Part shown: in pieces, positions 1,086 through 24,762 of the stretch
Layout: the number at the start of each line of letters is the position of its first letter
How positions within the stretch are numbered: the first letter of the stretch is position 1
Assembly: GCA_963675665.1 (NCBI GenBank)
Contig: OY776510.1
Coordinates: 320,001 to 384,000 of the forward strand
Direction: 5' to 3'
DNA length: 64,000 bases
Origin: Spirochaetia bacterium
GTDB taxonomy: Bacteria > Spirochaetota > Spirochaetia > UBA9216
Program-made: the position numbers and the translations under genes
The notes under the pieces: model-generated
The model's database searches: none
The model's input: only the letters and a program-made list of their open reading frames with translations
Told to the model about the DNA's origin: nothing

Positions 1086-2114
1086 TTAAACTATGCTTTT
1101 AAAAAGCGCCTCAATATTCTCAGGAGGAATGTCCGGCAGGATTGCTTCGTGGCTGGGAGACAGGATTAAACCTGTTGGAAAAATCTGTTTCAGCTCAGCT
1201 ACCTTCTTCCGTACATCATCAACCGCACCGTTAACCAGCAGATGCTGGGCGTCAATCCCGCCGCAGAAAGCCACCCTGTTTCCAAATTCATCTTTCAGCG
1301 AACCGGGCTCCATTCCTTTTGCAAGGGCCTGAATCGGATGAATGACATCAACACCGATGTCAATCAAATCGCCTATTATCGGCCTTATGGAACCGCATGA
1401 ATGATGTATAACCTTTAAACCGTATTTATGCGCCTGTTCAACAAGTTTCCCGGTCCCGGGAAGCACAAGATCATTGATAAGTTCTCTGGACAACATCAGA
1501 TTTTCCTGGCTGCCGAGATCATTTCCAATCAGAACAGCATGAAGCTTGCCTTTTGCAGCTTTATAAAAGATTTCATTCGCCTCAAGATAAAACTTGAGTA
1601 TTCGGTCAATCACAGCCTTAAACATCTCCGGTTCAAGGATCATTTTCATCATTGCCGTTTCCATACCGAAGGCGGCACAGGCATCCTGAAAATGCGCTGA
1701 CCAGACAACTCCCAAAACAGCTTTATCTTCCGGCGCAGCCTCAACCGCCCTGAGGCATTCTTCCGGGTCAATGTACTTTTTCGGATCAGGCCAGTCAAAA
1801 TCATCAACAAGAGACGGATCGGAATAATCTTCAAAAAAGCCTGCAGCGGTCAGGGTCCGTTCGACCTCGTCGCCTTTAAACTCTTTTCCAAAATCAAAGG
1901 CCGCATAGATGGCATTACTGGTTGGTGATTTATAGGGAAGCTCTACGGGATAGATATCATCATTTACAGCTTCAGACATTTCCCTGATATCTTTTATCCT
2001 GAAATAATCCAAAAGAGCCTGATGCGCTTCCGGGACCGGAAGTCCCAACCAGCTTGCCGGGTAATCTACGGGCTCTCTGTTTATTGTTGCGTAAAATCTT
2101 TCAATATGTTTCAT
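1086..2114 (-). CDS. UroD/MetE (MtaA/CmuA-like) superfamily protein 1
   Basis: 342 aa. Motifs GNDLGSQ, IHHSCGSI, HPIQ, FCGGIDAQ, LSPSHEAI, PPENI. Confidence 0.85.
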   Translation of the reverse strand: MKHIERFYATINREPVDYPASWLGLPVPEAHQALLDYFRIKDIREMSEAVNDDIYPVELPYKSPTSNAIYAAFDFGKEFKGDEVERTLTAAGFFEDYSDPSLVDDFDWPDPKKYIDPEECLRAVEAAPEDKAVLGVVWSAHFQDACAAFGMETAMMKMILEPEMFKAVIDRILKFYLEANEIFYKAAKGKLHAVLIGNDLGSQENLMLSRELINDLVLPGTGKLVEQAHKYGLKVIHHSCGSIRPIIGDLIDIGVDVIHPIQALAKGMEPGSLKDEFGNRVAFCGGIDAQHLLVNGAVDDVRKKVAELKQIFPTGLILSPSHEAILPDIPPENIEALFKSIV

Positions 2115-2154: not shown

Positions 2155-3342
2155 CTACATTTCAGCAATATCATATTCGCCGAGTTCAAGCGGATAGTTT
2201 CCATATTTACGCATTAACCCGACAACATACTCATAACGTTCGGCACTGACATTACTGGGCACGGAATGATCGGACTGAACTATATACCCGCCGCCTTTTG
2301 CCGCATTCAGTTTTGTCAGCACTTCTGCTTTAAGTTCTTCAATAGGCGCATCGGCCCATTTCATGGCATTAATATTTCCGCAGAATCCCATTTTATGACC
2401 ATACTGTTTTCTTATATCAACAACATCAAGGCCGGATTTTGCTTCAAGGGGGTTGTAGGAATCGAGCCCCATCTCAATAAAATCCGGATAGATAGCCGAG
2501 GCATTTCCACAACCGTGATATATGACGGGAAGATTCCTGGAATGACAGTAATCAATTATTGCCTTTACACCGGGTTTGAAATGTCGGCGCCAGTAATCGG
2601 GTGAAAAAAGCATGCCATTAACATAGGCAACATCACCCCAGATAACCATTCCGTCAAGCAGGCCGTCCGCCGCTTGAATCTGGGCTTTCACCAGTTCAAA
2701 GTTAAACTCATTAACGCGTTTCAGAAACTTGCCCAGTTCTTCAGGATACAAACCCATCCACAGCATCATGTTTTCAGAACCGATAATTCTCCAACCTTCC
2801 TCATGGCCCTCGCAAACCGATCCGTAAACCGGGAAATCGGGATGAAGTGATTTCACAGTCTCTATCCAGGGCGGACTGTTACGGGTAATCACTTCGGACA
2901 CGCCTGCAATCTGGTTGTCTCCGCCCTTGAAAAAACGTCTCTCATCCCACGGATCATCAAATTTAAATGCTTTCATTTTGTCAACAGTATCTGTATCAAA
3001 ATGTTCAAAATACGGCATCTGCCTGCCGTCGCGATGCCTGATTACAGCCTCAAAACCGGTTCTCACAAGCATATCGCCGTCATTATCAGAAAGAATTTCA
3101 AAGTCTTTGATATGGGGATCCATGTTGGGAGTAGTGGCAATCCAGTCAAGATCATAATGATAATAAGGACTTGCATCCTTGGGAAGTCCAAGTTCCTGCT
3201 GCCATCGATCTATAAATGTGAGCCAGAAAAAATCACTGAATGGGACTCTGTCAGGTTCCTGATGTGATAGTGCAGTATTCATTCTGCCAAGTTTTTTTAA
3301 ACAATTATCAGTTCTATTCACAGTTATAACCCTTTCTACCAA
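2155..3342 (-). CDS. UroD/MetE superfamily protein 2
   Basis: 395 aa. Motifs HQEPDRVP, WGDVAY, YHGCGNA, NPLE, FCGNI, GGGYIVQSDHSV. Confidence 0.85.
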   Translation of the reverse strand: MVERVITVNRTDNCLKKLGRMNTALSHQEPDRVPFSDFFWLTFIDRWQQELGLPKDASPYYHYDLDWIATTPNMDPHIKDFEILSDNDGDMLVRTGFEAVIRHRDGRQMPYFEHFDTDTVDKMKAFKFDDPWDERRFFKGGDNQIAGVSEVITRNSPPWIETVKSLHPDFPVYGSVCEGHEEGWRIIGSENMMLWMGLYPEELGKFLKRVNEFNFELVKAQIQAADGLLDGMVIWGDVAYVNGMLFSPDYWRRHFKPGVKAIIDYCHSRNLPVIYHGCGNASAIYPDFIEMGLDSYNPLEAKSGLDVVDIRKQYGHKMGFCGNINAMKWADAPIEELKAEVLTKLNAAKGGGYIVQSDHSVPSNVSAERYEYVVGLMRKYGNYPLELGEYDIAEM

Positions 3343-3440: not shown

Positions 3441-4637
3441 CTACCACTGGGGCGGATAAAATTCTTCTACATCATCAATTGTAATCATATGCTGGGGAAG
3501 GTTTCTGATTGGTTCGATTTCTTTTCCGTTAAACCAGTCTGCTGCAGTTTTTACAGCAAGAGCTCCATCGCCTTCTGCCGTCTGATAAGTGATAGCGTAA
3601 AGCTTGCCTTCCTTAACAAGGTCCATGCCGACTTTGCTGTTTCCGGCTGCGATAACTACAACATCTTCACGTCCGGCTTTTTTGAGTGCTTCAAAGATTC
3701 CAAGAGCCTGGGCCGAGTCATCAGCCGCACAAATGCCCTTAAGGTCATCGCCGAATCGGGTAAGCCAGTCGGATACAAGCTGCATTGTTTTATCAGCTTC
3801 AAATCCGGGAGCCTGTTTGTCGAGGACTTCAATTCCGGGAGCATATTCGGCAAGTTCGGATATCGGACCGAAACATCTTGCAAAATAGGGAGATCCACCG
3901 GGGGCGTGCTGTATATAGGCAACTCCGCCTTCTTTTCCAAGCTTGTCTGCCCAGAGTCTGGCAAGCTTTCTGAACTGACCGAAGTCATCCGGTCCGGTCC
4001 ATGCAATTGCATAATCCATTGCTGCTGCATCAGGAAGGGTGTTGAAGAGTATCAAAGGTATGCCGGCTTTGTTTATTTTTCTTGCCTGCTGGGGAGCTGT
4101 TTTTGCATCTAACGGGATCAGAAGGATCATGTCGGGTCTTTCGTTTATTGCCTGGTCGATCATCTGGTTCTGTACGGCAAGATCCCAGTTCGGGGACTGA
4201 ATCTTGATATCCATTTTGTAGGTATCAGCTACTTTCTGAGCTCCTGTAGTACATGCGGTTGTCCATGGATGGTCGCCGTGTACGATCATTATTACCTTTT
4301 TGCCAATTGCACCGTCTGCCGGGGATGCAGGGATGTTTGTCTTGTTTGTAATTTCTCCTGCAAACTCCATGTCCCACCAGTGCAGTGGATCTTCTTCAGG
4401 TAATGCTGAAGGGTCTGCCGGCCTTTGAGGTACTGTTCTTTTAGTTCCTCCTACCTTGATAAGCGCCTGTCCGTCGGCTGCGGTAAGAGCCAGCGCTTTC
4501 TCATCCAGTGCAAGTGATGCAGCAAGGTTTCCGTTGTCAACTGACGCTGATCCGGCTTCCTGTTGTCCGCCTGCGAACACCATTCCAACTGATGCAGTCA
4601 GCAGCAGTACCATCAAAAGTGTCAAAATCTTTTTCAT
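3441..4637 (-). CDS. Sugar ABC transporter substrate-binding protein (RbsB-like, CUT2)
   Basis: 398 aa. Signal peptide followed by AGGQQE. Peripla_BP-type segments (QNQMIDQAINERPDMILLIP, KAGIPLI, GICAADD). Lies next to the permeases and ATPase. Confidence 0.9.
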   Translation of the reverse strand: MKKILTLLMVLLLTASVGMVFAGGQQEAGSASVDNGNLAASLALDEKALALTAADGQALIKVGGTKRTVPQRPADPSALPEEDPLHWWDMEFAGEITNKTNIPASPADGAIGKKVIMIVHGDHPWTTACTTGAQKVADTYKMDIKIQSPNWDLAVQNQMIDQAINERPDMILLIPLDAKTAPQQARKINKAGIPLILFNTLPDAAAMDYAIAWTGPDDFGQFRKLARLWADKLGKEGGVAYIQHAPGGSPYFARCFGPISELAEYAPGIEVLDKQAPGFEADKTMQLVSDWLTRFGDDLKGICAADDSAQALGIFEALKKAGREDVVVIAAGNSKVGMDLVKEGKLYAITYQTAEGDGALAVKTAADWFNGKEIEPIRNLPQHMITIDDVEEFYPPQW

Positions 4638-4669: not shown

Positions 4670-5698
4670 TTATGCCTGGTTCTGGACTTCAAGTTCTTTC
4701 ATCAGCTCAGGACGCTGACCTATTATTTTTTCATGTTTATATGCAACCCAGGCTTCATAAAGCACAACTGTTGCAAGAATAATACCGGCTATAAAAATCT
4801 TAACTTCGTTTCCAAGACCGAAGAGAATAATTCCGTTATACAGAACATCAAGCATCAGAATCGCCATAAAGGTTTTAAAAATCCCGCCCTTGCCGCCCGA
4901 CATTGCCGTTCCTCCGATAATTGTTGCGGATATAACGTACATCAGGGAAGATGTTCCCATATTCAGGGTTGCTGCGGCGCTTTCCATGGCAAAGAGGACT
5001 CCGCCGATACCGGCAAAGACACCCGACATGATAAAAGCGGCGATAGTGTATCTGTCGGTATCAATTCCGGCCAGCCAGGCAGTCTGAACATTACCGCCGA
5101 CCATATAGAAGTTCCGGCCTGTCCGGGTTTTTCTCATAAAGAAACTGGCGGCCACAACAAGAATAACCGTAATCAGAACCCTCGGAGTCACCAGGGGAAA
5201 GATCATCATTCCCAGCCAGTCCGAGACTGCAAATGCATCCGGAGTTGACAAGCTTACGGAATTACCTCCGGTAAAAGTATAAATTGCCCCCTGAAGAACC
5301 GTCATCATTCCCAATGTTACGATGAACGAATTGATTTTTGCTTTTGCAACAAGCAATCCGTTAACAAGTCCTATCAGACCGCTGGCAATTATCGCCACGG
5401 GAACACTTCCGCCGAACCCAAGATATTCTTTGAGCCCCAGCCCGAGAATACCTGTAAACGTAATAATGGTACCGATAGACAAATCAAGCTGTCCGATGAT
5501 TAAAATGACTGTAAATCCTATAGCTACAGTAGCATTCATGGCCATTGTGCGCATTATGGTTGTAAGATTAAAAACATTGAAAAACCTGGGGGCAAAAACT
5601 GCCATAAACAGGAACACCAGGCCAAAAAGCAGGAAGATCCTGTTCCGGTCGACCAGTACCAATATTGAACTCTTTTTCTTTATTTTATTATGCATCAT
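4670..5698 (-). CDS. Sugar ABC transporter permease (RbsC-like)
   Basis: 342 aa, hydrophobic. Motifs GQLDLSIG, SFIVTLG, GGNVQTAWLAGI, IIGGTAMSGGKG. Confidence 0.9.
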   Translation of the reverse strand: MMHNKIKKKSSILVLVDRNRIFLLFGLVFLFMAVFAPRFFNVFNLTTIMRTMAMNATVAIGFTVILIIGQLDLSIGTIITFTGILGLGLKEYLGFGGSVPVAIIASGLIGLVNGLLVAKAKINSFIVTLGMMTVLQGAIYTFTGGNSVSLSTPDAFAVSDWLGMMIFPLVTPRVLITVILVVAASFFMRKTRTGRNFYMVGGNVQTAWLAGIDTDRYTIAAFIMSGVFAGIGGVLFAMESAAATLNMGTSSLMYVISATIIGGTAMSGGKGGIFKTFMAILMLDVLYNGIILFGLGNEVKIFIAGIILATVVLYEAWVAYKHEKIIGQRPELMKELEVQNQA

Positions 5699-6722
5699 CC
5701 CGTCCCAATGTCCTAAGCGATTTAGCGTTAATTCCGACTACAATAATGAAAATTGCACCCCTGATCATATCCTGTGAGAATGTTCCGATACCCAAAAGCG
5801 TCATGATATTATTCATCAATCCGATAATCAGAACTCCTCCGAGGACCCCGATTATCGAACCTCTTCCGCCGGCAAGGGTCATACCGCCGATAACTATTGC
5901 AGTTACCGCCTTAAAGTCGTATCCTCCGCCGTTGTAATATGCCCCGACCCTGGAAAGCGAGGTAATAGTAAGACCGCCCAGGGTAGCCGTCAGTGCGCAG
6001 ATAATAAAACTCAGACCGATTATTCTCTCAACATTGACGCCAGAAAACTTCGCAGCCTTATTTGCCGCGCCCGTGAACTTCAGCTGCTGACCGAATTTGG
6101 TCCGCTTCATGAGGAAATTCATGAGAATTACGAGTATTATCAGAAATACAACCGGAAGAGCAATCTTGTTAAAAAATCTCAATCGGTAAATACTGTCGAA
6201 AAGATCGCTTGCCCGCTGAGATTTGGCTATCATGTCCGGATAAATCTGCTTATTCACCCATACAAGCCTGATAACGCCCAGAGTTACGTAATTTACAGCC
6301 AGCGTCCAGATAATGGGATTAGCCTTGAACTTTCCTATTGCAACTGCGTTGACAAACCCGATAGCAAGGCCGACAAGTACTGCAACCAGAACTGCAGGAA
6401 GAAATCCGAACTTCAGCATCTGAACGGCAACAATACCGGTCAGGGCCATTGTTGTGGGAACCGACAAATCGGCATAGTGTCCCGAGTAGGTTACAAAAGC
6501 CATACCCACGGCAACAATGCCGAGCATTGAAACCGCATCTACAATATTAAGCATATTCTGCGCAGTCAGAAAATTATTAATAACCCCGAGTGCCTGCAGA
6601 ATAATACCCAGAAGAAGAAACATTGCGGCAACTGCATATATCCCTACTCCATGGAGTATTTTTCCAAGAATATTATATTGAGTGGATCTGCTGTCCACTG
6701 TTTTCGTATTTTCCATCAGCAA
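5688..6722 (-). CDS. Sugar ABC transporter permease (RbsC-like)
   Basis: 344 aa, hydrophobic. Motifs ADLSV, AAKFSGVNV, VIGGMTLAGGRGS. Confidence 0.9.
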   Translation of the reverse strand: MLMENTKTVDSRSTQYNILGKILHGVGIYAVAAMFLLLGIILQALGVINNFLTAQNMLNIVDAVSMLGIVAVGMAFVTYSGHYADLSVPTTMALTGIVAVQMLKFGFLPAVLVAVLVGLAIGFVNAVAIGKFKANPIIWTLAVNYVTLGVIRLVWVNKQIYPDMIAKSQRASDLFDSIYRLRFFNKIALPVVFLIILVILMNFLMKRTKFGQQLKFTGAANKAAKFSGVNVERIIGLSFIICALTATLGGLTITSLSRVGAYYNGGGYDFKAVTAIVIGGMTLAGGRGSIIGVLGGVLIIGLMNNIMTLLGIGTFSQDMIRGAIFIIVVGINAKSLRTLGRDDA

Positions 6723-8224
6723 ATCCCCTCGCCGTTTGCTGCAAGAAGAACACTTTCCTCGGTACAGCCCGATTGATCCATTTCATGTATAAGATGTCCC
6801 TGACGCAGGACTATGACTCTGTTCGACAAGGAAACCAGCTCGGGAAGATCCGAAGAGATTAACAGAATGGTCGTTCCGGTTGCCGCCAATTTTTCTATCG
6901 ACTTATGAATTGTCATTTTGGCGCCTATATCTACCCCCCTGGTCGGTTCATCAAGAATAAGAACCTTCGGTTCCATTGCAAGCCATTTGGCAAGCAGAAC
7001 CTTCTGCTGGTTCCCTCCCGACAGGTTCCCGGTGATCCGCTCCGGATCAGGCGGATAAATTGACAACTCGCCAATCAGGTCTTTTACCTTTTGAAGACCT
7101 TTGGCTTCCTGATAAACACCATTCGGTGAAAGCTGCGGTATTATTCCGGCAAGGATATTTTCTTTCACATCAAGTCTCAATGCAAGACCTTCAGTTTTCC
7201 TGTTTTCAGTAAGATAGGTTATACCGTCTTTGAGGGCATCGGCCATTGTCCGCGGCCTGATTTCCTTATTGTCAATTAATACCCTGCCCCCGGATCTGTC
7301 ATCAAGACCGACCAAAACCCTTGCAAGCTCACTTCGTCCGGCGCCCGAAAGCCCGCAGATACCGAGAACTTCGCCCTTATGAGCTTTGAAAGACACATTA
7401 TGAAAGAAACCGTACCGTGAAAGATTTTCAACCTCAAGCCTCACTTCCTGCTGGGAATGGCTTTCATGGGAATAGAATTCCTTTACAGAACGGCCCACCA
7501 TCATCTGAACAAGCTCTTCACTTGTAACGTCTTCAATATTTCTTGTATCGATGCGTTTCCCGTCGCGCATGACCGTCACCCTGTCGGCTATCTCAAAAAT
7601 CTCCGGAAGATGATGTGATATATAAATGATAGCAAGACCGCGGTTTTTAAGCCTTTTGATTATTTCAAACAGCCTTTCCACTTCTTCCCGGGATAAAGCA
7701 GAAGTAGGCTCGTCCATAACCAGAATGCAGGGATTATTACCAAGAGCCTTGCCTATTTCTACCAGCTGACTTTCATGCTGGCTGATTTCTTCAATTTCGA
7801 TATCCGGGTCAAGATGCTCAAGCCCTACCAGCTTCAGACAACGCTTTGTCTCCTTGAAGATTTTTTCCTTGTCGAGAAACAACCCTTTTTTGGGAAGCCG
7901 CCCGACAAGCACGTTTTCGGAGATGCTCAACGGAAGGGCAAGACTCAGCTCCTGATATATCATCTCGATGCCGTTCCTTTTTGAAGCTACCGGGCTATAC
8001 AGCCTGGTTTCTTTTGAAGCAATATATATTTCACCTGAATAATCATCAAAAGATCCGGCAATAATCTTCATCAGGGTCGATTTACCTGCGCCATTCTCGC
8101 CTATAAGAGCATGAACTTCTCCTGCCCTTACATCAAAATCAACATTATCCACGGCGAGTGTGCCCGGGAAACTTTTACTGACACCCTTCATCCTTAATGC
8201 TATACCTAATTCCTGGTCACTCAA
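6716..8224 (-). CDS. Sugar ABC transporter ATP-binding protein (RbsA/MglA-like, two NBDs)
   Basis: 502 aa. Motifs GENGAGKST, LVMDEPT, LSGGNQQK, ILDEPTRGVDIGAK. Confidence 0.95.
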   Translation of the reverse strand: MSDQELGIALRMKGVSKSFPGTLAVDNVDFDVRAGEVHALIGENGAGKSTLMKIIAGSFDDYSGEIYIASKETRLYSPVASKRNGIEMIYQELSLALPLSISENVLVGRLPKKGLFLDKEKIFKETKRCLKLVGLEHLDPDIEIEEISQHESQLVEIGKALGNNPCILVMDEPTSALSREEVERLFEIIKRLKNRGLAIIYISHHLPEIFEIADRVTVMRDGKRIDTRNIEDVTSEELVQMMVGRSVKEFYSHESHSQQEVRLEVENLSRYGFFHNVSFKAHKGEVLGICGLSGAGRSELARVLVGLDDRSGGRVLIDNKEIRPRTMADALKDGITYLTENRKTEGLALRLDVKENILAGIIPQLSPNGVYQEAKGLQKVKDLIGELSIYPPDPERITGNLSGGNQQKVLLAKWLAMEPKVLILDEPTRGVDIGAKMTIHKSIEKLAATGTTILLISSDLPELVSLSNRVIVLRQGHLIHEMDQSGCTEESVLLAANGEGIC

Positions 8225-8354: not shown

Positions 8355-8678
8355 TCAATCAAGATGATAGAGCTCTTCCATATCAGCCCACCATTCTCCG
8401 TCTTTTCTGGTCTCAAGAGGCTTCTGCATCGGCATCATAATATCCCACCATTCCCGCGTCTTAGGATCATCAGCCATTTTTCTCATATCAGCCTCATAAT
8501 CTGAACCGACATACTCAAAATAGGCAAATAACATTCCGTCTTTATAGAAAATGGAATAGTTTCTGATATTACACGCGCTTATCATTGTGTTTATTTCAGG
8601 CCAGACCTCTGCATGATATTTTTTATAACTGTCAAAATGTTCCGGTCTTACTCCAATAAGCTGTCCGAATCTTCTCAC
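8355..8678 (-). CDS. rhaM: L-rhamnose mutarotase family protein
   Basis: 107 aa. Motifs YKKYHAEVWPE, IRNYSIF, LFAYFEY, WWDIM, WADMEELYHLD. GTG start 7 nt after GGAGG. Confidence 0.85.
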   Translation of the reverse strand: MRRFGQLIGVRPEHFDSYKKYHAEVWPEINTMISACNIRNYSIFYKDGMLFAYFEYVGSDYEADMRKMADDPKTREWWDIMMPMQKPLETRKDGEWWADMEELYHLD

Positions 8679-8882
8679 CTCATATCCTCCGTTTTTAATA
8701 TCCTAACACGAATTTTTTACATGTCAAGTTATTTTGTTAAAATTTTATCCTCATTGGTAATATTTTTAACAAATTTTAGCTAATATTTTTGATAAACAGG
8801 GTTTTTTGGGGATTATACACCCTCAAACATCATTTATACTGGCTGTATTTGCTAAATTTTGCTAAAATATTTTTTATTTCAA

Positions 8883-8929: not shown

Positions 8930-8939
8930 TGGATTGTTT

Positions 8940-9965
8940 ATGAAACCGAAATTACGAGATGTTGCAGAACGCGCAGGCGTATCAATTACAGCCGCTTCGA
9001 TGGCTCTTTCAGAATCCGGCAGAATTTCTGACGAAACAAGAAAGAAGGTTCTGAAAGCCGCAGAGGAACTGGGATATAAACGCAAACAGAAATCAAACAG
9101 GATTACGAGTTTTAATCATGTCGGAGTTTTGGTCAGCACTGATTATAAATGGGCGTTCATCTGGAAGTTTATCCGTCCGCTAATCGAGCAGATAGAAGTG
9201 GAGCTTAAGGCATATGATCTTAATCTCATCCTGATACCCATTTCTCACGATTCCTCACCGGAAGCAATATATAAAAAGATAACATCGTCTGGCTCCGGCG
9301 CGGTAATTTCGCTTCATTACGGCAACGACGACCTTTTTACAAGGCTTGAAAACACCGGAACCCATGTTATAGTAGTCATGAAATCGGACTTTCATGACCG
9401 TTATTACTCGGTTTGCGTAGACGACTTTCAGGGAGCATACGAAGCCGGCTGTCATTTAATCAGGCTCGGACATAAAAAAATTGCTTATGTAGGTGTAGAA
9501 CGCCCCGAGCTGCCTGCTCTTTCCAACGACAGGTTTATCGGCTTTAAAAAGGCAATGGATGTTAACGGTTTGACGCTTCCGGACGAAAACATATTTGAAT
9601 TCGAGACGGGGCACATGGACAAGCTCAGAAAAGATCTGTATCCGGTATTCAACCCGGGAAAAACCGAACGTCCTACTGCGGTATTCTGTCTCGATGATGA
9701 CCTTGCGCTCAGAGTAGTTATGGCGCTTCGCGATATGACCCTTTCCATCCCTGAAGATGTTTCCATCATTGCTCCCGGCGACGTGCTTGATTATAATTTG
9801 CCCTATATACCGCCAATCACCACCATGCAGATAGACACATCCTATATGGGGAAAATAGTCGCACAGATGCTTGTAAACAGAATAGAACATTCTCCGGACT
9901 CGCAGCACGGATTGAAAGTTCAGCAGCACCTTGTAGAACGGGGCAGCTGCCGGGCTTTAAAATAA
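8940..9965 (+). CDS. LacI-family transcriptional regulator (paralogue 1)
   Basis: HTH KLRDVAERAGVSITAASMAL. Sugar-binding domain with SVCVDDFQGAYE, GHKKIAY, IPEDVSII. ATG at 8940 preferred over the TTG at 8934. Confidence 0.9.
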   Translation: MKPKLRDVAERAGVSITAASMALSESGRISDETRKKVLKAAEELGYKRKQKSNRITSFNHVGVLVSTDYKWAFIWKFIRPLIEQIEVELKAYDLNLILIPISHDSSPEAIYKKITSSGSGAVISLHYGNDDLFTRLENTGTHVIVVMKSDFHDRYYSVCVDDFQGAYEAGCHLIRLGHKKIAYVGVERPELPALSNDRFIGFKKAMDVNGLTLPDENIFEFETGHMDKLRKDLYPVFNPGKTERPTAVFCLDDDLALRVVMALRDMTLSIPEDVSIIAPGDVLDYNLPYIPPITTMQIDTSYMGKIVAQMLVNRIEHSPDSQHGLKVQQHLVERGSCRALK

Positions 9966-9968: not shown

Positions 9969-11273
9969 TCAGCCCGCATACTCTTCTGCAATATGGGATG
10001 CAATTGTCTCCCATTCCCACAGCCGCCGGGGGTCATATCTGACAGTAGAAATATCCTTCATTATCAGTTCAACATTGCATTTACCTTCGGTTTTATCAAG
10101 AAAATCACGAATCTCCTGCCCGGCCCGTTTCGGGTCCCAGCGGCTTTCAGCAAGAATGGCAGGGTTCGGTTTGCGGCTCATTACATAATAAGGTCCAAGA
10201 TTTTCAATCGCCCGTTCAGTCTTTGACCACGGACTTACCGAAACCTTTCTCAGATTCGGTATGCGTTTGAGGATATCGGCTTTTCCGTCAAGGGGCTCAC
10301 AGCAACCGTAATATGTATGCTTCCATCTTTTGAGCCAGCGCAGATCATGTTCAATCGCAAAATCCCGGTGCATTTCCGGCGACACTTCGCTGAAAATCTG
10401 CGCATTTGAGCATCCCCACATGTTTTCAGGTTTAATATAACCAGGATTATATTCGTCGCCCGGCAGGTCGGAAACATAGCCGTAACCCCCGGAACCTATT
10501 CTTGTATTATCACAGTCAAGCGAAAGAAGATTTTGATCTACAAACTGATCAAGCTCGATCATCCATGCGTCTACCATTCTGTCTACAAATGCATGAACCA
10601 TATCCGGTCTCATGACAAGATCCATCATGGCCTCCTGCACCCCCCACCAGCGGATTAGATAGTCCCATGGGGTAAACCAGATATGGGTTTGCCCGACTTT
10701 TTTTACCGGTATAATACCTTCATACAAGTCTTTCATAGCATTGAAACTGTACTCGGTAGCTTTTTCATAGTGGCTGACCACAGGCATTTTAATCTTCTCG
10801 AGATCATCCATACTTTTTATCTGAATCTCGAAATGCCTGGAATAGATATCGTTCTCAGCATCGGTTTTAACAACCTTTACTTCTTCAATAATCCCGAAAT
10901 CAGTGCTGTGGATAACCAGCGGGCATTCAATAAACGGATTCACAATCATATCCCCGGGCATATGATTCCATTGGTAAATGGTCCTTCTAAGCCTGAGTTC
11001 AAGCTCCCTTGCCCATGGATGTTCCGTCTTTAATGTAAGCTCATCGTTGACATTCATTTCATGCCAGGGGATTTCATTTATCCAGATCATCGGCCGCCTG
11101 GACTTCAAATCATTTAAATTCTTCCAGAGCTCCGCTCTCTGCATGTTCACCGAATCAGAGGATATTTCGGCAATTTCCCCGCCCAGCTTTTTCAGAATTT
11201 CTTTTTCTTTATCTTTCAAGATTATTTCCGCCTCAACAGGGGGGGCTTCTTTATGACTGGGATCGTGCAGCAT
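9969..11273 (-). CDS. Divergent UroD/MetE-clan TIM-barrel protein (YGCCEP type)
   Basis: 434 aa. UroD-like segments WGVQEAMMDLVMRPDMVHAFVDRM and SEVSPEMHRDF, then YYGCCEPLD and LRKVSVSPW. Confidence 0.6.
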   Translation of the reverse strand: MLHDPSHKEAPPVEAEIILKDKEKEILKKLGGEIAEISSDSVNMQRAELWKNLNDLKSRRPMIWINEIPWHEMNVNDELTLKTEHPWARELELRLRRTIYQWNHMPGDMIVNPFIECPLVIHSTDFGIIEEVKVVKTDAENDIYSRHFEIQIKSMDDLEKIKMPVVSHYEKATEYSFNAMKDLYEGIIPVKKVGQTHIWFTPWDYLIRWWGVQEAMMDLVMRPDMVHAFVDRMVDAWMIELDQFVDQNLLSLDCDNTRIGSGGYGYVSDLPGDEYNPGYIKPENMWGCSNAQIFSEVSPEMHRDFAIEHDLRWLKRWKHTYYGCCEPLDGKADILKRIPNLRKVSVSPWSKTERAIENLGPYYVMSRKPNPAILAESRWDPKRAGQEIRDFLDKTEGKCNVELIMKDISTVRYDPRRLWEWETIASHIAEEYAG

Positions 11274-11367
11274 CTTCTCAACTCCTGATTAATTATCTGA
11301 TCAATTGATAAACCTGATATATTCAGTCGTCAATCCGCTTGTCTATTTTTTACAGTTGGTTTGTAAA

Positions 11368-13080
11368 TTATTGATGTGATTTTCTGTCGCCCTGGTTGTA
11401 CTCTGACGGGTAGACCCCGGTATATTTCCTGAAAGTGTTATAAAAATAGTTTGCATCGGTGTATCCAACTTCGGCAGCTATCTGGTTAGCCTTCATTCCG
11501 GTTGTGTTTAAAAGCTCCTTTGCTTTTCTTATTCTTAAAGAATTCAAATAGCGGGAAAAGTTCTCGCCGGCTTCTTCTTTGAATAATTTGCCGAGATAAG
11601 CCGGAGACAGATCAAACTGGTAGCCTAAAACCTTCAACGACAACGGATTCTGATAGTTATTGTCAACATACTCAACAATCTGCTGAATAAGGGTCCTGGG
11701 TCTTGCACGATCGATTGATAAAAGGTTAATGATTTCAAGTGCTGTGCTCTTCAGCCAGTCGAGAGTTTTCTCAATGGTTTTATACTGAAAAAGCTGTTTA
11801 AACAGTGATTCATAACCGCCTACTATTTCCTTTTCATTCATTTTATTTGTTCTGATAATATTCAGCAGATTGGAAAGCAACTCAACAGCAAAACCGCGAA
11901 AATACTCCTCACTGATAATTCTTCTGATTGTGAAACTCTGATAGATCCCGGAAAAAAAGCGTTCTACCGCCTCACGGTTGCATTCAAGAACCATCTGATA
12001 CAGGTAATCAAGATCAATTTCTTCCGGTGTATTGGATTCGAGAAAAAAGTCATCGACATTGTCTGCCGTTAGCATCTGAATGGGCAGATACCTGAATGGT
12101 TCTACTTCAAGTCCGTTAAACCAGTCTATTGCAAGCTGAATTGCAAGCGCTCCGTCAAGCCTTGCAGACTGATAGGTTGTTAAATCAAGCCGTCCCTCTT
12201 TGAGCATCCTCATTCCGACAAAACTGCTGCCGTTTGCTGCCCGAACAATGTCTGTCCGACCGGCTTCTTCCAGGGCACGGTTTATTCCCTGCTGGGCTAC
12301 ATTGTCATCAGCGCTGACTATTCCCTTCAGCTCACTGCCGAATTCTTCTATCCATGATTTAACCTGCATGTAAGTTTTTTCTTTATCAAGCCTGGTACTC
12401 TCAACCCCAAGAAGCTTCATCTCCGGAGCAATTTCGTTCAGCTCTGTAATGAGGCCCCATTTCCGTCCAAGGTAAGCCGATGAACCGGGGATATGACATA
12501 TAACTGCATAACCGCCGCAATAGTCCATCATTCCCGCAAAACGGCCGGCTAGCACCCTGAACTGCCCCCAGTCGTCAGGCCCTGTCCAGGCAAGAATATA
12601 TTTCAATGCCTCGGGGTCCGGAACCAGATTACTTGCAACAACAGGAATTCCGGCCTTATTAATTCTGCGGTAACAGTCTACACTATCGGAAGCACTCTCA
12701 GGAACAAGAATAATCAGATCGGGTTTTGATTCTATGGCTTCTTCAACCTGCCGGGCCTGCGTATCCATATCCCAGCCGGAATGAAAAAACACCAGTTTTA
12801 TCCCGAAAGGTTCAGCTGTTTCTTTCATTCCGGCTTCATATTCAGAGTGATAAGGGTGTTCCGGTAAAAGACAGATAACATTCTTGCCTTTTGCCCCATC
12901 CATGGGCGACGGCGGAATATTTTCCTTCTTTACTCCCCAGCCGGGGTATTCTTTATCATACCAGTGAAGACGATTATTCTCAGGGTAGTCTTCAGGATGT
13001 TTCGGTCTTTGGGGAATTTCTTTTCTGCCGCCCACCCAGAGAATAGGCTTTCTTCCGTCTGCATGATTATACGGACCCAT
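11368..13080 (-). CDS. AraC-family regulator with an N-terminal sugar-binding-protein domain
   Basis: 570 aa, no signal peptide. The N-terminal ~340 aa is collinear with the SBP at 3441-4637. C-terminal AraC HTH: SPAYLGKLFKEEAGENFSRYLNSLRIRKAKELL...VGYTDANYFYNTFRKYTGVYPSEY. Confidence 0.9.
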   Translation of the reverse strand: MGPYNHADGRKPILWVGGRKEIPQRPKHPEDYPENNRLHWYDKEYPGWGVKKENIPPSPMDGAKGKNVICLLPEHPYHSEYEAGMKETAEPFGIKLVFFHSGWDMDTQARQVEEAIESKPDLIILVPESASDSVDCYRRINKAGIPVVASNLVPDPEALKYILAWTGPDDWGQFRVLAGRFAGMMDYCGGYAVICHIPGSSAYLGRKWGLITELNEIAPEMKLLGVESTRLDKEKTYMQVKSWIEEFGSELKGIVSADDNVAQQGINRALEEAGRTDIVRAANGSSFVGMRMLKEGRLDLTTYQSARLDGALAIQLAIDWFNGLEVEPFRYLPIQMLTADNVDDFFLESNTPEEIDLDYLYQMVLECNREAVERFFSGIYQSFTIRRIISEEYFRGFAVELLSNLLNIIRTNKMNEKEIVGGYESLFKQLFQYKTIEKTLDWLKSTALEIINLLSIDRARPRTLIQQIVEYVDNNYQNPLSLKVLGYQFDLSPAYLGKLFKEEAGENFSRYLNSLRIRKAKELLNTTGMKANQIAAEVGYTDANYFYNTFRKYTGVYPSEYNQGDRKSHQ

Positions 13081-13125: not shown

Positions 13126-14379
13126 TCACAGACTGAACTCTCTTGCCGCCTCAAACATTGCAAGTATGTTCTGCGGCGGGATATCGGGCATTATGTTATG
13201 AATATTGGCAAAGACAAAGCCTCCGCCCGGGGCAAGAATTTCCATCCGCCTGGTTGCTTCCGCCTTAACCGCAGAAACCGACCCGTTTTTAAGAATATCC
13301 CGGACCTCCATTCCACCTCCCCAGAAAACCATATCAGATCCGAATTCCTTCTTTAACCGTTCCGGCTCCATATTCAGACAGTTTGTCTGAACCGGATTGA
13401 TTATATCAATTCCGGAATTTATAAAATCAGGAATATACTGATAGACGGAGCCGCAGGTATGAAGAAATGTTTTCATCCCGGTATTTTTATGCACATAATC
13501 AGACAGTCTCTTTCTATGCTCATGAAAAAGCTCCCGGTAGACAGCAAGACTCATAAACGGTCCCGAATCCATGCCCAGATCATCCCCAAAACGGATAATA
13601 TCAACAATATCTCCGACACTTTCACAGACCGCTTCAAGGCTTTTCATGTGCCGTTCCATTAATAATTCAAGAAGGACAGAAACCTTGTCTTTCCCGGTGT
13701 ATAAATCCATCAGGAAATTATCCATCCGGCGCAGAAAGGTTCCCCATTCAAAAAGGTTGCAGCCTATTACAACCATCAAAGCCTTGTCAGTCTGTGCTCT
13801 CAGCTGTATTGTCCTTTCACGAAGCTGTTCATAAAAATCCGGTTCTGAAGCATGATCCCACGGGCTATGGACAAAATGAGCCCATAAAACCTTATCCATT
13901 GCTTCATCCAGCGCCTCATCCATTGCATTTCGGCCTTCCGGATAACCTTCCAGAAACGGAAATACCGTCTGATCAAAAAAGGTAGCGCTCTCAGGCATTA
14001 CTGCTATAATCTCTCCGTTGCCGTGCCTCGCTTCCCAGGCGCCGGCATCATTTTTTTCAGGTTTAAACCATGAGGGATAATATGCAGTTTTTCCTGTCGG
14101 CAGTTTCATTTGAGTCCAGTCAGTTTCACTGTTATTGAAACTGCGTCCGATATCAAGAACATCAACCCCGAGAAGATCAATCAGCTCCGGCCCGGGCTGA
14201 GCAAGCTGCTGTACAACATCATAAACAAGAGTAGGATCATCCTTCCGTCCCAGATACTCCACAAGATTACGGTGCGCTATGGCAGAAATGCCGGCACTTG
14301 GATTGGAACCGAGATCAATCGGGGGCCTGTCAGGCTCTTTATGATTGATTGACAGCAGTACTCGATCTCTTGAAGTCAT
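13126..14379 (-). CDS. UroD/MetE superfamily protein 3
   Basis: 417 aa. Motifs MTSRDRV..HKEPDRPP, FGDDLG, FLHTCGSV, NPVQ, FWGGG, GGGFVFANIHNI, PPQNI. Confidence 0.85.
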   Translation of the reverse strand: MTSRDRVLLSINHKEPDRPPIDLGSNPSAGISAIAHRNLVEYLGRKDDPTLVYDVVQQLAQPGPELIDLLGVDVLDIGRSFNNSETDWTQMKLPTGKTAYYPSWFKPEKNDAGAWEARHGNGEIIAVMPESATFFDQTVFPFLEGYPEGRNAMDEALDEAMDKVLWAHFVHSPWDHASEPDFYEQLRERTIQLRAQTDKALMVVIGCNLFEWGTFLRRMDNFLMDLYTGKDKVSVLLELLMERHMKSLEAVCESVGDIVDIIRFGDDLGMDSGPFMSLAVYRELFHEHRKRLSDYVHKNTGMKTFLHTCGSVYQYIPDFINSGIDIINPVQTNCLNMEPERLKKEFGSDMVFWGGGMEVRDILKNGSVSAVKAEATRRMEILAPGGGFVFANIHNIMPDIPPQNILAMFEAAREFSL

Positions 14380-14575
14380 TAAAATCCCCCAAATATAAAG
14401 GTTATGTTTATCAATAATTTTGCTTTATTTTACCTTACCATATCACCTGTATTTTAGCATATAGTCTTCTCAAGTCAAGAAAAATGTTTATATTTAATTT
14501 ATATATTCAAATTTTACCAACTTCTTTATCATATTTTACTATTTTCCGTTATATTTTACCACTATTTTACTTGTT

Positions 14576-14611
14576 TAATGATAAAATATATTATAATATA
14601 TTTTATCATTA
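14576..14611. promoter_or_regulatory. Perfect 36-bp palindrome centred on a TATAAT, candidate operator of LacI paralogue 2
   Basis: TAATGATAAAATATATTATAATATATTTTATCATTA is self-complementary and ends 12 nt before the ATG at 14624. Confidence 0.65.
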
Positions 14612-14623: not shown

Positions 14624-15631
14624 ATGGTTAAATTATCCGATATTGCACTGGAGGCCGGGGTATCCGTCACAACTGTTTCGATGGCGCTCTCGGGAAAAGG
14701 CAGAATCTCTACTGAAATAAGACAGAAGGTGCAGAAGTCTGCAGACAAACTTGGTTATGTAAAAAAGAAAAGATGTTCTTCCGAATCAGTCTGGGCAGTA
14801 CTTGTTCCGATGTCCGAGCAATGGGATTCAATATGGCATTTTATCAGACCTGTCATAGATAACATTACAAAAACCGCCGTCAGGAACGGGATTGGCTGCT
14901 GCATAATTCCTGTTTATCCGGAGTTTACTGTTTCAGATGTTAAATCATCCTTACATCATCATAAAGCTGCATCCGTATTCTCCATACACTTCGGAAATAC
15001 AGAACTTTTTGAGAGTCTTGAGAAAGAAGGGATTCCGGTTGTTGTAATTAATAATTCGCAATATCAGGAAGGATATTTCTCAATCTGCGTAGACGACTTT
15101 CAGGGGGCATATGAGGGAACAAAACACATTATCAATAAAAAGCATACTGCTATTGCATTTCTGGATTACCCGCGTCCAATGCTGCCCAATCTGGCATCAG
15201 ACAGATATTTCGGTTTTTTAAAGGCAATTGAAGAAGAAAATATTCAGTTCAAAGAAGAATGGAAAATTCAAATAGATCTTGATGATATTACCGAGCTAAA
15301 AAACAGGTTAAAAAAGATGCTTGAAAAAACACCGGCGCCTACGGCTTTCTTTGTTCACGATGATTTCATGGCTAACCGTTTAATATTTATACTTAATGAA
15401 CTCGGTCTGTCGGTTCCCGAAGATATTTCAATTACTGCTCCGGGAGATACATTGAATTACTCTTTCCCTGAAACGGCTAGAATAACCACAATGAGCATCA
15501 ATACAGGGTTGATGGGCAAATATGCCGCAGACATGATGCTTGAACGTGAATCAGGCGGGTACCAGGAAAGTCATGTTCTAAAAATAAAACAGCAGCTTAT
15601 TATAAGAGGCTCAACTCTCACCAGAGACTGA
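14624..15631 (+). CDS. LacI-family transcriptional regulator (paralogue 2)
   Basis: HTH KLSDIALEAGVSVTTVSMAL. Segments SICVDDFQGAYE and VPEDISITAPGD closely match paralogue 1. Confidence 0.9.
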   Translation: MVKLSDIALEAGVSVTTVSMALSGKGRISTEIRQKVQKSADKLGYVKKKRCSSESVWAVLVPMSEQWDSIWHFIRPVIDNITKTAVRNGIGCCIIPVYPEFTVSDVKSSLHHHKAASVFSIHFGNTELFESLEKEGIPVVVINNSQYQEGYFSICVDDFQGAYEGTKHIINKKHTAIAFLDYPRPMLPNLASDRYFGFLKAIEEENIQFKEEWKIQIDLDDITELKNRLKKMLEKTPAPTAFFVHDDFMANRLIFILNELGLSVPEDISITAPGDTLNYSFPETARITTMSINTGLMGKYAADMMLERESGGYQESHVLKIKQQLIIRGSTLTRD

Positions 15632-24704: not shown

Positions 24705-24716
24705 GGCTTCCTCCTC

Positions 24717-24762
24717 ATATATGACTTATATATATCTTATATATAAGTCATATATTTGTCAA
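24717..24762 (-). promoter_or_regulatory. Promoter TTGACA-17-TAAGAT overlapped by a perfect 18-bp inverted repeat (operator)
   Basis: ATATATGACTTATATATA-tct-TATATATAAGTCATATAT at 24717-24755, just upstream of the permease RBS. Confidence 0.7.

Follow-up and report, generated by a model that had tools for sequence, protein, structure and literature searches.

The gene at 11368..13080 of the window (the whole 64,000-nucleotide stretch of DNA that was analysed) encodes a protein, here called REG (P0001), which is probably an AraC-family one-component regulator of transcription, located in the cytoplasm. Its N-terminal 346 residues form a complete type I sugar-binding-protein fold without an export signal, and its C-terminal 220 residues are the helical module and double HTH with which YesN-type response regulators end. 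The fusion family is old and spread through Spirochaetota, and not newly made in this genome. The gene and its parts are as follows:

11368..13080, minus strand: REG (P0001), 570 aa, ATG start, built of an arm, an SBP-type sensor, a helical module, and an AraC HTH
12895..13080, minus strand: REG residues 1-62, N-terminal arm PxRP...HWYDxEYxGW, common to the SBP subfamily
12043..12894, minus strand: REG residues 63-346, type I (CUT2 / Peripla_BP_4) binding-protein fold, presumed ligand sensor (Pfam and fold matches)
11698..12042, minus strand: REG residues 347-461, helical module, a homologue of the region that precedes the HTH in YesN-type response regulators
11389..11697, minus strand: REG residues 462-564, AraC/XylS-type double HTH DNA-binding domain (Pfam and PDB sequence matches)

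In Pfam, REG matches Peripla_BP_4 at residues 74-322 (95.1 bits, cut-off 35.1), HTH_18 at residues 489-563 (75.2 bits, cut-off 33.6), and HTH_AraC (41.9 bits, cut-off 26.6). A PDB sequence search gave matches over residues 462-564 that include 3oou (E 4.5e-21), YesN 3lsg, AraC 2k9s, and MarA, and the protein can be placed by sequence in the AraC/XylS family. The AF2 model of REG has a pLDDT of 90.1 (86-97 for arm residues 21-60), and its sensor is predicted to adopt the two-lobed alpha/beta fold of type I / CUT2 (Peripla_BP_4) sugar-binding proteins. The top Foldseek matches of the sensor are transport SBPs (E 3e-20, TM 0.85 to 2ioy), and with VIA it matches 4kq9 at Z 33.0 (rmsd 1.9, 288 aligned residues) and the 50 transport SBPs among the matches listed at Z 29-33. 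The arm alone (66 aa) matched no Pfam family, residues 346-470 gave a single chance-level Pfam match (E 0.11), and residues 345-570 found generic AraC HTH clusters only in the ESM Atlas (score 0.91). The first-pass annotation had reported neither a signal peptide nor a transmembrane helix, and indeed no hydrophobic segment is present, the highest 19-residue Kyte-Doolittle mean of REG being 1.00. A hydrophobic N-terminal segment occurs neither in REG nor in any of the 73 fusions, whose arm begins inside the first 25 residues; in two of the 73 the hydrophobicity threshold is exceeded, both times by a segment at residues 389-426 within the helical module. Because this N-terminal segment is absent, REG is not a transport SBP, that is, an exported receptor of an ABC system.

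The output half goes back to another family of regulators. REG 351-570 matches YesN-type response regulators over query positions 4-213, i.e., the whole linker and HTH, at 30-43% identity, which bears out the YesN-like helical linker noted earlier. The best 40 matches comprise 24 REC(+GGDEF_2)+AraC proteins of ~515-535 aa (most of them matching most or all of positions 4-213), 14 PBP+AraC proteins, and two with AraC only. The window's own YesN-like gene matches REG residues 434-564 only, and no receiver domain (Response_reg) was matched in REG with Pfam. A tree of the C-terminal module clusters the PBP fusions, with six changes of which the starred branches force only two, branch support being too weak to count acquisitions. 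When two copies of REG 345-570 were predicted together, a score of 0.45 was obtained (best control 0.25), which lies only just above a mark reached by 20 of 30 solved homodimers and by one of 23 proteins solved as single chains. Contact agreement between runs was at least 72% and partner pLDDT at least 79, and the predicted interface (residues 390-407 and 422-432) lies in the helical module. The model supports, rather than demonstrates, dimerisation through this part of the protein.

REG lies in a cluster that also encodes an ABC transporter and its exported binding protein:

1086-2114, minus strand: URO-D-family gene, downstream of the SBP gene
2155-3342, minus strand: URO-D-family gene, downstream of the SBP gene
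3441..4637, minus strand: exported arm-bearing SBP (P0002) of the ABC transporter, 398 aa, 44% identical to the REG sensor
4670-5698, minus strand: permease (Pfam)
5688-6722, minus strand: permease (Pfam)
6716-8224, minus strand: ABC ATPase (Pfam)
8355..8678, minus strand: rhaM-family (L-rhamnose mutarotase) gene, first in the transporter operon, conserved in the cluster (Pfam E 1.6e-32)
8934..9965, plus strand: LacI-family regulator, divergent from the transporter operon (Pfam)
9969..11273, minus strand: UNK (P0004), URO-D/MtaA-like fold without a Pfam match, the commonest immediate neighbour of REG
13126..14379, minus strand: URO-D-family gene (P0003), 45 bp upstream of REG
14624..15631, plus strand: second LacI-family regulator, divergent from the URO-D/REG/UNK genes (Pfam)

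P0003 and REG are probably carried on one transcript. P0002 matches Peripla_BP_4 alone in Pfam and has a hydrophobic segment at residues 4-22 (Kyte-Doolittle mean 2.5). When the profile of UNK was compared with those of the three URO-D paralogues, at best 80% probability was reached, over 59 columns only; its URO-D/MtaA-like fold was settled by a fold search. At least one cluster gene was found at 19 of the 27 other REG loci within the available flanking DNA: UNK in 14 (adjacent in 11), URO-D in 17, rhaM in 15, and the arm-bearing SBP in nine. The other eight have no cluster gene in the available flanks (two of these with 10 kb on each side), and some family members therefore also serve other targets. 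Within the window's order a full-length REG gene is present in four of 11 genomes, and in the two with REG and SBP on one contig (G004 and G009) they are about 9 kb apart. The cluster itself was found in Spirochaetota, Planctomycetota, Verrucomicrobiota (including Akkermansia MAGs), Moorella, and others. It is not accompanied by REG in two complete genomes from this order (G002 and G003) or at any non-spirochaete locus; for this reason, and because two LacI-type regulators stand at the locus, REG may be a secondary control. A literature search, in whose coverage subscription journals were mostly not included, found no paper on the fusion family or on the URO-D/rhaM/ABC cluster and no published name for the arm-bearing SBP subfamily. 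Corrinoid-dependent methyl transfer by the URO-D paralogues was considered and set aside as speculation, as none of the 13 B12-binding-domain matches in this genome lies near the cluster.

By BLASTP, P0001 7-346 aligns to P0002 54-394 with 149 of 341 residues identical (44%), 63% positives, and one gap (E 2e-100), and the alignment takes in the N-terminal arm. The full-length resemblance claimed on first reading is thus confirmed, and all five peptide pairs quoted for it are present in the two translations. The arm motif PxRP...HW[YF]DxE[YF]xGW and the WTGPDDW motif both occur in REG; together with the grouping in trees described below, they assign it to the arm-bearing SBP subfamily. The REG sensor is 44-50% identical to exported SBPs. 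The presumed pocket was taken as the positions aligned to ribose-binding-protein (RBP) contacts plus neighbouring loops, a contact list for E. coli RBP being mapped onto REG by sequence alignment at ~20% identity. In a sample of 73 fusions, 35 SBPs, and nine permease fusions, H75, Y77, N151, W165, D169, D170, H196, S201, R206, L231, A257, D258, D259, G284, and Q304 are invariant or nearly so, with R206 and Q304 (the equivalents of RBP Arg141 and Gln235) invariant in 73 of 73 fusions. When the 73 fusions were compared with the 44 SBP or permease-fused forms, 84 conserved columns carried the identical residue and none was conserved but different; a loss of pocket residues, which would have spoken against the initial proposal, is thus not seen. 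Systematic differences occur at a few pocket-lining positions. Position 78 is mostly T in the SBPs and M/H/S/N in the regulators, position 126 is F in the SBPs and V/I/W in the regulators, and the 283-285 loop reads A-G in 35 of 35 SBPs (A-G-N in P0002) as opposed to N-G-S in P0001, with N in 42 of 73 fusions. Because of these differences, the ligands of regulator and SBP may be related rather than identical.

The resemblance had been read as showing that REG is a copy of the transporter's own binding protein. According to this explanation, a copy of the SBP gene that arose by duplication within the lineage shed its signal peptide and became joined to an AraC domain, a recent birth that would be readable at the locus. 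It is true that P0001 is the closest paralogue of P0002 in the genome (44%, ahead of a copy linked to a chemoreceptor with 35% and of ordinary SBPs with 27-31%) and that 8 kb separate the two genes within one cluster. The trees, however, tell otherwise. The search yielded 361 proteins at E<=1e-10, of which the best 120 were listed, and 73 of 124 tree rows were classed as fusions. All 73 fell into one group in a quick tree (SH-aLRT 88), as did 27 of 27 fusions in a careful tree (support 96/93). Together with the chemoreceptor-linked domains (five copies sampled), the fusions make up a clade of 32 (100/99), and all 17 SBPs that are exported or fused to a permease lie outside it; the arm-bearing family splits from ordinary SBP paralogues at support 100. 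PBP-AraC forms that lack the arm also exist (P0131, P0136). P0002 is placed elsewhere, among the exported SBPs, and is 66-67% identical to P0115 and P0099 of other organisms but only 44% to REG, which in turn is 72-80% identical to the fusions of other genomes. Forcing P0001 and P0002 to be sisters cost 237.6 log-likelihood units and was rejected (AU p 2e-31). As the sensor is most closely related to SBP domains at chemoreceptor C-termini, one of them in this very genome, the sensor was not copied from the genome's own transporter SBP. Full-length REG matches were found at 27 loci of other genomes (25 with Spirochaetota titles, two without a taxon in the title), with Treponemataceae, Rectinemataceae, Oceanispirochaeta, and Marispirochaeta among the fusion taxa. 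Given this age and spread, no regulator birth is visible in this genome, although the locus had been called a clear example of one, and a duplication within the lineage is scarcely credible. What survives of the first-pass annotation's duplicated receptor moved to the cytoplasm is that REG is a cytoplasmic member of the same arm-bearing subfamily; the derivation from this transporter's SBP does not. Grouping with unrelated SBP or LacI domains, which had been named as a refutation, was not observed, as the sensor groups with the arm-bearing SBP family. The chemoreceptor gene of this genome stands at the end of the chromosome record, and its frame stops at once when read across the record ends; either the gene is cut there or the record ends do not abut.

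Our preferred mechanism starts from an ABC system that would import an unmodified sugar or polyol, possibly 6-deoxyhexose-like because a rhaM-family gene belongs to the cluster. The imported solute, or a very close derivative, would then close the two lobes of the REG sensor, and we infer that REG and the SBP share this ligand. Alternatively, REG might sense a molecule other than the one the SBP delivers, such as the product of a URO-D-fold enzyme or a related sugar, and would then act as a sensor of a pathway intermediate. The differences at positions 78, 126, and 283-285 fit such a role, as do the linkage of REG, which is tightest to UNK, its direct neighbour in 11 of 27 loci, and looser to the SBP, found at nine of 27, and the location of some paralogues beside unrelated genes, for example, a pterin-binding methyltransferase and MTHFR (L024). 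On the other hand, the strongly conserved pocket-loop residues are identical in both groups, with no column conserved but different, and ABC import does not alter a solute chemically; a different ligand is accordingly unlikely, if well worth keeping in mind. It could also be imagined that the SBP-like domain binds no ligand at all and serves as a scaffold or for dimerisation only, with REG being constitutive or otherwise controlled. The dimer prediction leaves room for this, since it puts the interface in the helical module and is silent on the sensor, but the invariance of the pocket-loop residues, R206 and Q304 among them, is hard to explain without selection for binding, which makes an empty sensor very improbable.

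Next to the preferred ligand-sensing mechanism, a broader evolutionary reading is possible, if somewhat doubtful. One branch of exported SBPs may have entered the cytoplasm once and been wired to both a YesN-type AraC module and the C-terminus of a chemoreceptor, so that one recognition module, its pocket almost unchanged, would serve uptake, induction, and chemotaxis toward a single solute. This solute would feed a pathway found in several phyla and composed of four URO-D-fold enzymes, a rhamnose-mutarotase-like protein, and a CUT2 transporter. The spirochaete studied here carries an exported SBP, REG, and a chemoreceptor with an SBP domain. The chemoreceptors of the sister group, which carry an SBP domain at a cytoplasmic C-terminus, hint at an unusual form of taxis, in which an imported solute is sensed. 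The soluble sensor and the exported SBP, whose pockets are nearly alike, furthermore provide two independent proteins for ligand screens on the cluster substrate.

Several known systems combine similar parts. The last ~210 residues of REG align throughout with YesN-type systems (30-43%), which also use a Peripla_BP_4 sugar sensor, YesN being presumably the partner of XylFII-LytS. Unlike these systems, REG lacks both a receiver domain and a kinase partner; its binding-protein domain is joined straight to the output module, and three proteins are replaced by one, located in the cytoplasm. XylFII-LytS of Clostridium beijerinckii is listed as a three-component sugar sensor in a table (PMC8050422). 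The Bacteroides hybrid two-component sensor BT1754 (2X7X) likewise has a type I SBP fold as built-in sugar sensor and ends in an AraC HTH (VIA Z 30.2, rmsd 3.4, 283 aligned residues to the REG sensor). Its sensor domain is periplasmic according to the entry title, and it presumably signals via kinase and receiver domains, whereas REG is soluble and direct. With LacI/GalR repressors, REG shares a cytoplasmic type I binding-protein fold joined to a DNA-binding domain, but it lacks the N-terminal LacI HTH (no PF00356 match, while both neighbouring LacI genes match), and Peripla_BP_1 reaches 24.5 bits over residues 73-155 only, compared with 95 bits for Peripla_BP_4. REG is thus not one of the LacI/GalR repressors.

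The domain order of REG is that of the XylR family (Ni et al. 2013), whose Escherichia coli member has an N-terminal PBP fold for a sugar in the cytoplasm and a C-terminal AraC-type double HTH (PMC3561964). According to the same source, XylR (PDB 4FE4/4FE7) contacts xylose via Arg139, Asp219, and Gln237, binds two sites as an antiparallel dimer formed via its PBP domains, and has a sensor closest to LacI/GalR repressors (PurR) (PMC3561964). REG appears to differ in that its sensor is nearest to transport SBPs, the dimer contact is predicted within the helical module, outside the PBP domains, and it carries a 60-residue N-terminal arm and a ~115-residue helical module for which the 392-residue XylR has no room. 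R206 and Q304 of REG, at the places of RBP Arg141 and Gln235, may correspond to XylR Arg139 and Gln237, judging from the near-identical numbering. By phmmer, REG matches XylR only in the DNA-binding domain (464-563 with XylR 286-385, E 5.5e-9); XylR is absent among the best 50 Foldseek / VIA matches listed, but these are filled by transport SBPs, so that XylR may still be a structural match. In Bacillus subtilis, the AraC-type activator Btr is described as having a ligand domain homologous to the SBP (FeuA) of its target ABC transporter and as binding a direct repeat overlapping the -35 element on its upstream side (PMC3333878). Btr thereby embodies the logic first proposed for REG, namely a regulator sensor akin to the SBP of the regulated transporter. 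From the same description, however, its AraC part is N-terminal and its siderophore-type SBP-like part C-terminal, with no YesN-type module, and the NCBIfam Btr model scores 48.3 bits on REG (cut-off 900), in the HTH only. The two fusions are not homologous, and REG is an independent case of the same idea rather than a Btr-type protein. The principle is thus already documented by Btr/FeuA (PMC3333878) and the XylR family (PMC3561964), which makes REG instructive for the specialist rather than startling. Its family is nevertheless a clean and well-populated case of a transport receptor turned intracellular sensor, with 84 conserved positions unchanged.

In the preferred mechanism, a REG dimer held by the helical module would set its HTH pairs on direct repeats rich in A/T and spaced by about two turns of the helix, beside the -35 element. 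It would activate three promoters, namely those of UNK, the rhaM/ABC/SBP/URO-D operon, and the URO-D/REG operon that encodes REG itself, acting alongside the two LacI-type repressors of the locus. Candidate elements were found at the following places:

11328..11356, minus strand: putative REG site with a -35 between REG and UNK, ACTGTAAAAAATAGACAAGCGGATTGACG, containing ACTGTAAAAAAT and GACA, kept in the closest orthologous loci
8722..8773, minus strand: transporter promoter, with -35 TTGACA (8722-8727) and proximal element ATAAAATTTTAACA (8735-8748)
8758-8773 with 8781-8796: upstream direct-repeat pair of the transporter promoter, 23 bp start to start
14507..14546, minus strand: pair of GTAAAAT-type direct repeats with a spacing of 22 bp, lying upstream of the URO-D/REG promoter (weaker candidate)

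The block in the REG-UNK spacer is conserved in four loci within an otherwise diverged spacer, and a related element adjoins the -35 of the transporter promoter in three loci. The 8758-8773 copy and the proximal element at 8735-8748 are 22 bp apart by eye. The promoters have near-consensus -35 boxes, and the motif spacing varies by one base between them. A degenerate site pattern gave five matches in the window where 0.93 were expected, only two of them within the locus, and the transporter-promoter 16-mer with up to three mismatches gave five (3.4 expected); a tandem TTTAGCAAA pattern, set with the wrong spacing, gave none. The 16-mer and tandem results carry no information on the sites. The candidate sites are not assignable between REG and the two LacI proteins. 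Near the lacI starts, TGATAAA..TTTAGCA elements resemble LacI-type half-palindromes.

The AraC-type regulator REG (P0001; ORF 11368-13080, minus strand) has 570 residues, in which Pfam recognizes a Peripla_BP_4 domain (74-322) and an AraC-type HTH_18 domain (489-563), and SBP (P0002; ORF 3441-4637), the exported binding protein of the nearby ABC transporter, has 398 residues, Peripla_BP_4 as its sole Pfam domain, and a signal-like hydrophobic segment at residues 4-22. By BLASTP, REG residues 7-346 align with SBP residues 54-394 with one gap and 149 of 341 positions identical (44%, E 2e-100). All peptide pairs quoted in the first-pass annotation are found in the two translations, and the resemblance of the REG sensor to the transporter's SBP is confirmed. 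The annotation was also right that REG is devoid of a signal peptide or transmembrane helix, as its 19-residue hydropathy mean peaks at 1.00 and hydrophobic segments are absent.

The same annotation regarded the sensor as a copy of the transporter's own SBP fused to an AraC domain. A search with REG residues 1-350 returned 361 proteins at E<=1e-10; among the best 120 of these 361, the ~65 highest-ranking rows have ~560-585 aa and combine Peripla_BP_4 with HTH_18 like REG, their identity falling from 80% to ~48%, and databases name these fusions merely 'substrate-binding domain-containing protein' or 'ABC-type sugar transport system substrate-binding protein/AraC-like DNA-binding protein'. Ranking under them in the same set are exported SBPs of ~398 aa (~50% identity to the REG sensor), permease-SBP fusions, chemoreceptors with a C-terminal SBP domain, and one fusion with an extra domain of the uroporphyrinogen decarboxylase (URO-D) family. 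Trees were built from the sensor-equivalent region of every protein and three own-genome paralogues, the rows being best matches to the REG sensor, so that sampling is skewed toward its kin. In a quick tree of 124 rows, all 73 fusions, including two shorter forms (P0021, 449 aa, without HTH; P0064, 518 aa, with a short N-terminus and the HTH present), form one group (SH-aLRT 88), which joins four chemoreceptor-linked domains and the own-genome paralogue L003 with a support of 99. A careful tree of 51 rows (LG+C20+F+G4) unites its fusions (27 of 27; 96/93) and, separately, the five chemoreceptor-linked domains (98/85); together they make up a clade of 32 that leaves all 17 exported or permease-fused SBPs outside, a split that is surer than the position of the root, given long outgroup branches. 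The window's SBP is placed among the exported SBPs (66-67% identical to P0115), and a tree constrained to pair it with REG is worse by 237.6 log-likelihood units (AU p 2e-31). Given the common grouping of the 73 fusions sampled and the AU test, local birth of REG from this transporter's SBP is not supported, and what holds is the family-level reading, in which the sensor derives from the arm-bearing SBP family. Judging from these trees, the fusion is old and of one origin among the sampled members.

The most interesting extension is the sister relation of REG to chemoreceptors carrying the same cytoplasmic domain (joint clade 100/99). In chemoreceptors of other genomes (P0084, P0095, P0113, P0116; L021:3186-6419, plus strand), two N-terminal membrane helices are followed by HAMP, the MCP signalling domain, and finally the SBP domain; as no other membrane segment occurs, the SBP domain should be cytoplasmic. 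The own genome encodes, outside the window (L003, L084; G000:C1:~5148274-5150563, plus strand), a methyl-accepting chemotaxis protein with a C-terminal arm-bearing SBP domain (Pfam MCPsignal and Peripla_BP_4), which is 35% identical to the window's SBP and lacks a hydrophobic segment, the gene being cut at the last base of the record. Other arrangements occur as well: P0070 (844 aa) combines three parts in one chain, an SBP-type sensor, an AraC HTH, and a C-terminal URO-D domain, which makes a physical tie between the regulator and the cluster's enzyme family, and nine of the 124 tree rows (P0071, P0074, P0078, P0085, P0093, P0102, P0104, P0105, and P0118; ~760-790 aa) carry an arm-bearing SBP at the C-terminus of a BPD_transp_2 permease.

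For the output half, REG residues 351-570 were searched against 1.84 billion representative proteins, which gave 39 matches at E<=1e-30, and the best 150 were taken. Pfam, run on 40 of the best 53, assigned 24 as receiver(+GGDEF_2)+AraC proteins of the YesN type (~515-535 aa), 14 as periplasmic-binding-protein (PBP) plus AraC, and 2 as HTH only. Query positions 4-213 are mostly or fully covered by most YesN-type matches, so the helical module is shared with the YesN type along with the HTH, which bears out the YesN-like linker described earlier. By local domain assignment, the 151 rows made up of the best 150 and REG comprise 93 receiver-type, 17 PBP-type (including REG), and 41 other or short proteins; branch support in the output-module tree is too low for counting acquisitions. 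Fusion of this module to further SBP lineages may also have occurred, as suggested by P0131 (534 aa) and P0136 (521 aa), PBP plus AraC proteins whose Peripla_BP_4 begins at residue ~18-39, leaving no arm. Within the window, a YesM-type histidine kinase and a YesN-type response regulator (REC plus AraC, 536 aa) form a pair at 60408-63512 (minus strand) that is a two-component relative of REG's output half; this regulator (60408-62018) matches REG residues 434-564 only, at 34%. Two copies of REG residues 345-570 are predicted to pair via helices 390-407 and 422-432 (score 0.45 versus 0.25 for the best control; of solved homodimers 20 of 30 attain this mark, of single chains 1 of 23), with at least 72% of contacts agreeing between runs and partner pLDDT of at least 79, which supports such pairing rather than shows it.

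The AlphaFold model of REG (81-row alignment, pLDDT 90.1, pTM 0.71) has a two-lobed domain to ~346, six helices at 358-458, and then the HTH domain, and the N-terminal arm is confidently packed (pLDDT 86-97 at residues 21-60). Transport SBPs top the Foldseek and VIA-align rankings (2ioy, E 3e-20, TM 0.85; 4kq9, Z 33.0, rmsd 1.9 over 288 aligned residues), and the Bacteroides BT1754 periplasmic sensor scores Z 30.2. Among the structural matches listed, 7x0p alone starts before model residue 59, and the arm by itself matches no Pfam family. Positions of the Thermoanaerobacter ribose-binding protein 2IOY that we take to be ribose contacts, from a list in the E. coli RBP literature, were mapped by alignment: N13, F15, F16, N64, D89, and R90 correspond to H75, Y77, H78, V126, N151, and L152 of REG, and R141, F165, N191, D216, and Q236 to R206, R230, A257, G284, and Q304. 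The list is supported because residue types at the listed 2IOY chain numbers are all consistent with it and because, according to PMC2315655, the Thermoanaerobacter and E. coli pockets are identical, with numbering offset by one beyond residue ~152. In the set of 73 fusions, 35 exported SBPs, and 9 permease fusions, H75, Y77, N151, W165, D169, D170, H196, S201, R206, L231, A257, D258, D259, G284, and Q304 show little or no variation, and pocket positions 78, 126, 152, 230, and 283 vary; the 283-285 loop and positions 78 and 126 differ systematically between regulators and SBPs. Counted across the entire domain, regulators and SBPs share one and the same residue in 84 columns conserved to at least 85%, and no column is conserved with a different residue. 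Sixteen of the 84 fall up to K66, that is, in the arm and the stretch into the first strand. Keeping the arm in a cytoplasmic protein would be unexpected if it served only for permease docking, which argues that it is probably part of the fold or of the binding site.

Genes of the locus.
13126-14379, minus: URO-D-family gene
11368-13080, minus: REG
9969-11273, minus: UNK (P0004), without Pfam match
8934-9965, plus: LacI gene, divergent
8355-8678, minus: rhamnose-mutarotase-family gene, rhaM (Pfam, E 1.6e-32)
6716-8224, minus: ABC ATPase
between ABC ATPase and SBP, minus: two permeases
3441-4637, minus: SBP
2155-3342 and 1086-2114, minus: two further URO-D-family genes
14624-15631, plus: second LacI gene, divergent from the first URO-D gene (13126-14379)

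UNK, the commonest gene adjoining the regulator, matches no Pfam or NCBIfam model and has an invariant YYGCCE motif. Its AlphaFold model (pLDDT 79.1, from 19 aligned homologues) resembles uroporphyrinogen decarboxylases (best E 4.2e-8, TM 0.37-0.59) and also a Methanosarcina MtaA-like methyltransferase, so that UNK is predicted to have the URO-D/MtaA fold and the cluster would hold four URO-D-fold paralogues. No B12-binding gene lies near the cluster in the own genome.

Scanning one genome per species turned up 251 stretches that encode a relative, and the best 80 of 251, representing 77 loci, were used. Full-length REG matches occur at 27 of these loci, 25 titled Spirochaetota (Spirochaetales, Spirochaetaceae, Treponemataceae, Rectinemataceae, Oceanispirochaeta, Marispirochaeta) and 2 without a taxon in the title; matches to residues ~7-346 only come from Planctomycetota, Verrucomicrobiota (including Akkermansia MAGs), Armatimonadota, Moorella/Neomoorella, Vallitalea, Calditrichales, and others. 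Window proteins were then compared with every ORF in the DNA available around each locus, within which at least one cluster gene is present at 19 of the 27 REG loci and none at 8: UNK at 14 (adjoining REG at 11), a URO-D paralogue at 17, rhaM at 15, the arm-bearing SBP at 9, the ATPase at 13, and a LacI gene at 11. At the 50 loci with SBP and without REG, a URO-D paralogue (16), rhaM (22), and UNK (5) are found. Within the window's order, 4 of 11 genomes have a full-length regulator, SBP lies ~9 kb from it in the two with both on one contig (G004, G009), and the nearly complete G002 and G003 have SBP and lack the regulator. The link of regulator and cluster is thus conserved, yet not obligatory. 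Among loci L025-L082, which lack the AraC fusion, the cluster of URO-D-fold paralogues, a rhaM-family gene, and a CUT2 ABC transporter whose SBP bears the arm is found again in Planctomycetota, Verrucomicrobiota (Akkermansia MAGs), Armatimonadota, Moorella, Vallitalea, and Calditrichales. At L024:7098-11671, the usual cluster genes are all missing within 10 kb; there a REG paralogue stands divergent to genes for a pterin-binding methyltransferase-like protein and for MTHFR, neighbours that hint at one-carbon or methyl transfer.

AraC-type dimers use direct repeats two helical turns apart abutting the -35. The 94-bp REG-UNK spacer contains the block ACTGTAAAAAATAGACAAGCGGATTGACG (11328-11356), which is kept in the three closest orthologous loci amid diverged flanks and terminates in a -35-like TTGACG, the -10 candidates after it being poor. 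At the transporter promoter, ATAAAATTTTAACA (8735-8748) lies seven bases upstream of TTGACA (8722-8727), with a resembling element 22 bp further upstream; the proximal element and -35 are conserved in L007 and L008. Ahead of the first URO-D gene, two GTAAAAT-type repeats stand 22 bp apart (14507-14546). Since these regions are A/T-rich, within-motif spacing varies by one base between promoters, a degenerate pattern matches five times in the window (0.93 expected) with only two matches in the locus, and two LacI proteins share the candidate promoter regions, the REG sites are put forward as candidates only. The TGATAAA..TTTAGCA elements look like LacI operators, and a perfect 36-bp palindrome (14576-14611; 18-nt arms, no spacer) just upstream of the LacI-type gene 14624-15631 is probably its operator.

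Three-component sugar sensors consist of a Peripla_BP_4 protein, a YesN-type regulator, and a kinase; XylFII-LytS is tabulated in PMC8050422. By analogy, REG resembles a chain of this kind condensed into a single cytoplasmic protein. It has precedents in principle in the XylR family and Btr. As defined in PMC3561964, the 'XylR family' joins an N-terminal PBP-fold effector domain to an AraC-like domain; REG fits this architecture, but its sequence match to XylR is confined to the HTH, its sensor comes from transport SBPs rather than from the LacI/GalR-like branch, and it has the arm and the YesN-type module beyond the XylR plan. According to PMC3333878, Btr is an AraC regulator that activates a transporter and has a ligand domain homologous to that transporter's SBP, and its sites are direct repeats two helical turns apart abutting the -35; unlike in REG, its domain order is reversed and its SBP is of the siderophore type. 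No description of the fusion family or of the URO-D/rhaM/ABC cluster was found in the literature searched. REG is of practical value mainly as a soluble second receptor with which to identify the substrate of this widespread and uncharacterised cluster.

Elsewhere in the window, a stretch of low G+C (24000-32000; 0.35-0.36 versus ~0.45 elsewhere) contains a DDE transposase gene (24871-26028, minus strand; DUF4372 and DDE_Tnp_1), and a BMC-domain shell protein, an aldehyde dehydrogenase, and a DeoC-type aldolase are encoded together at 47519-51326 (minus strand), in what resembles a portion of a bacterial microcompartment locus.
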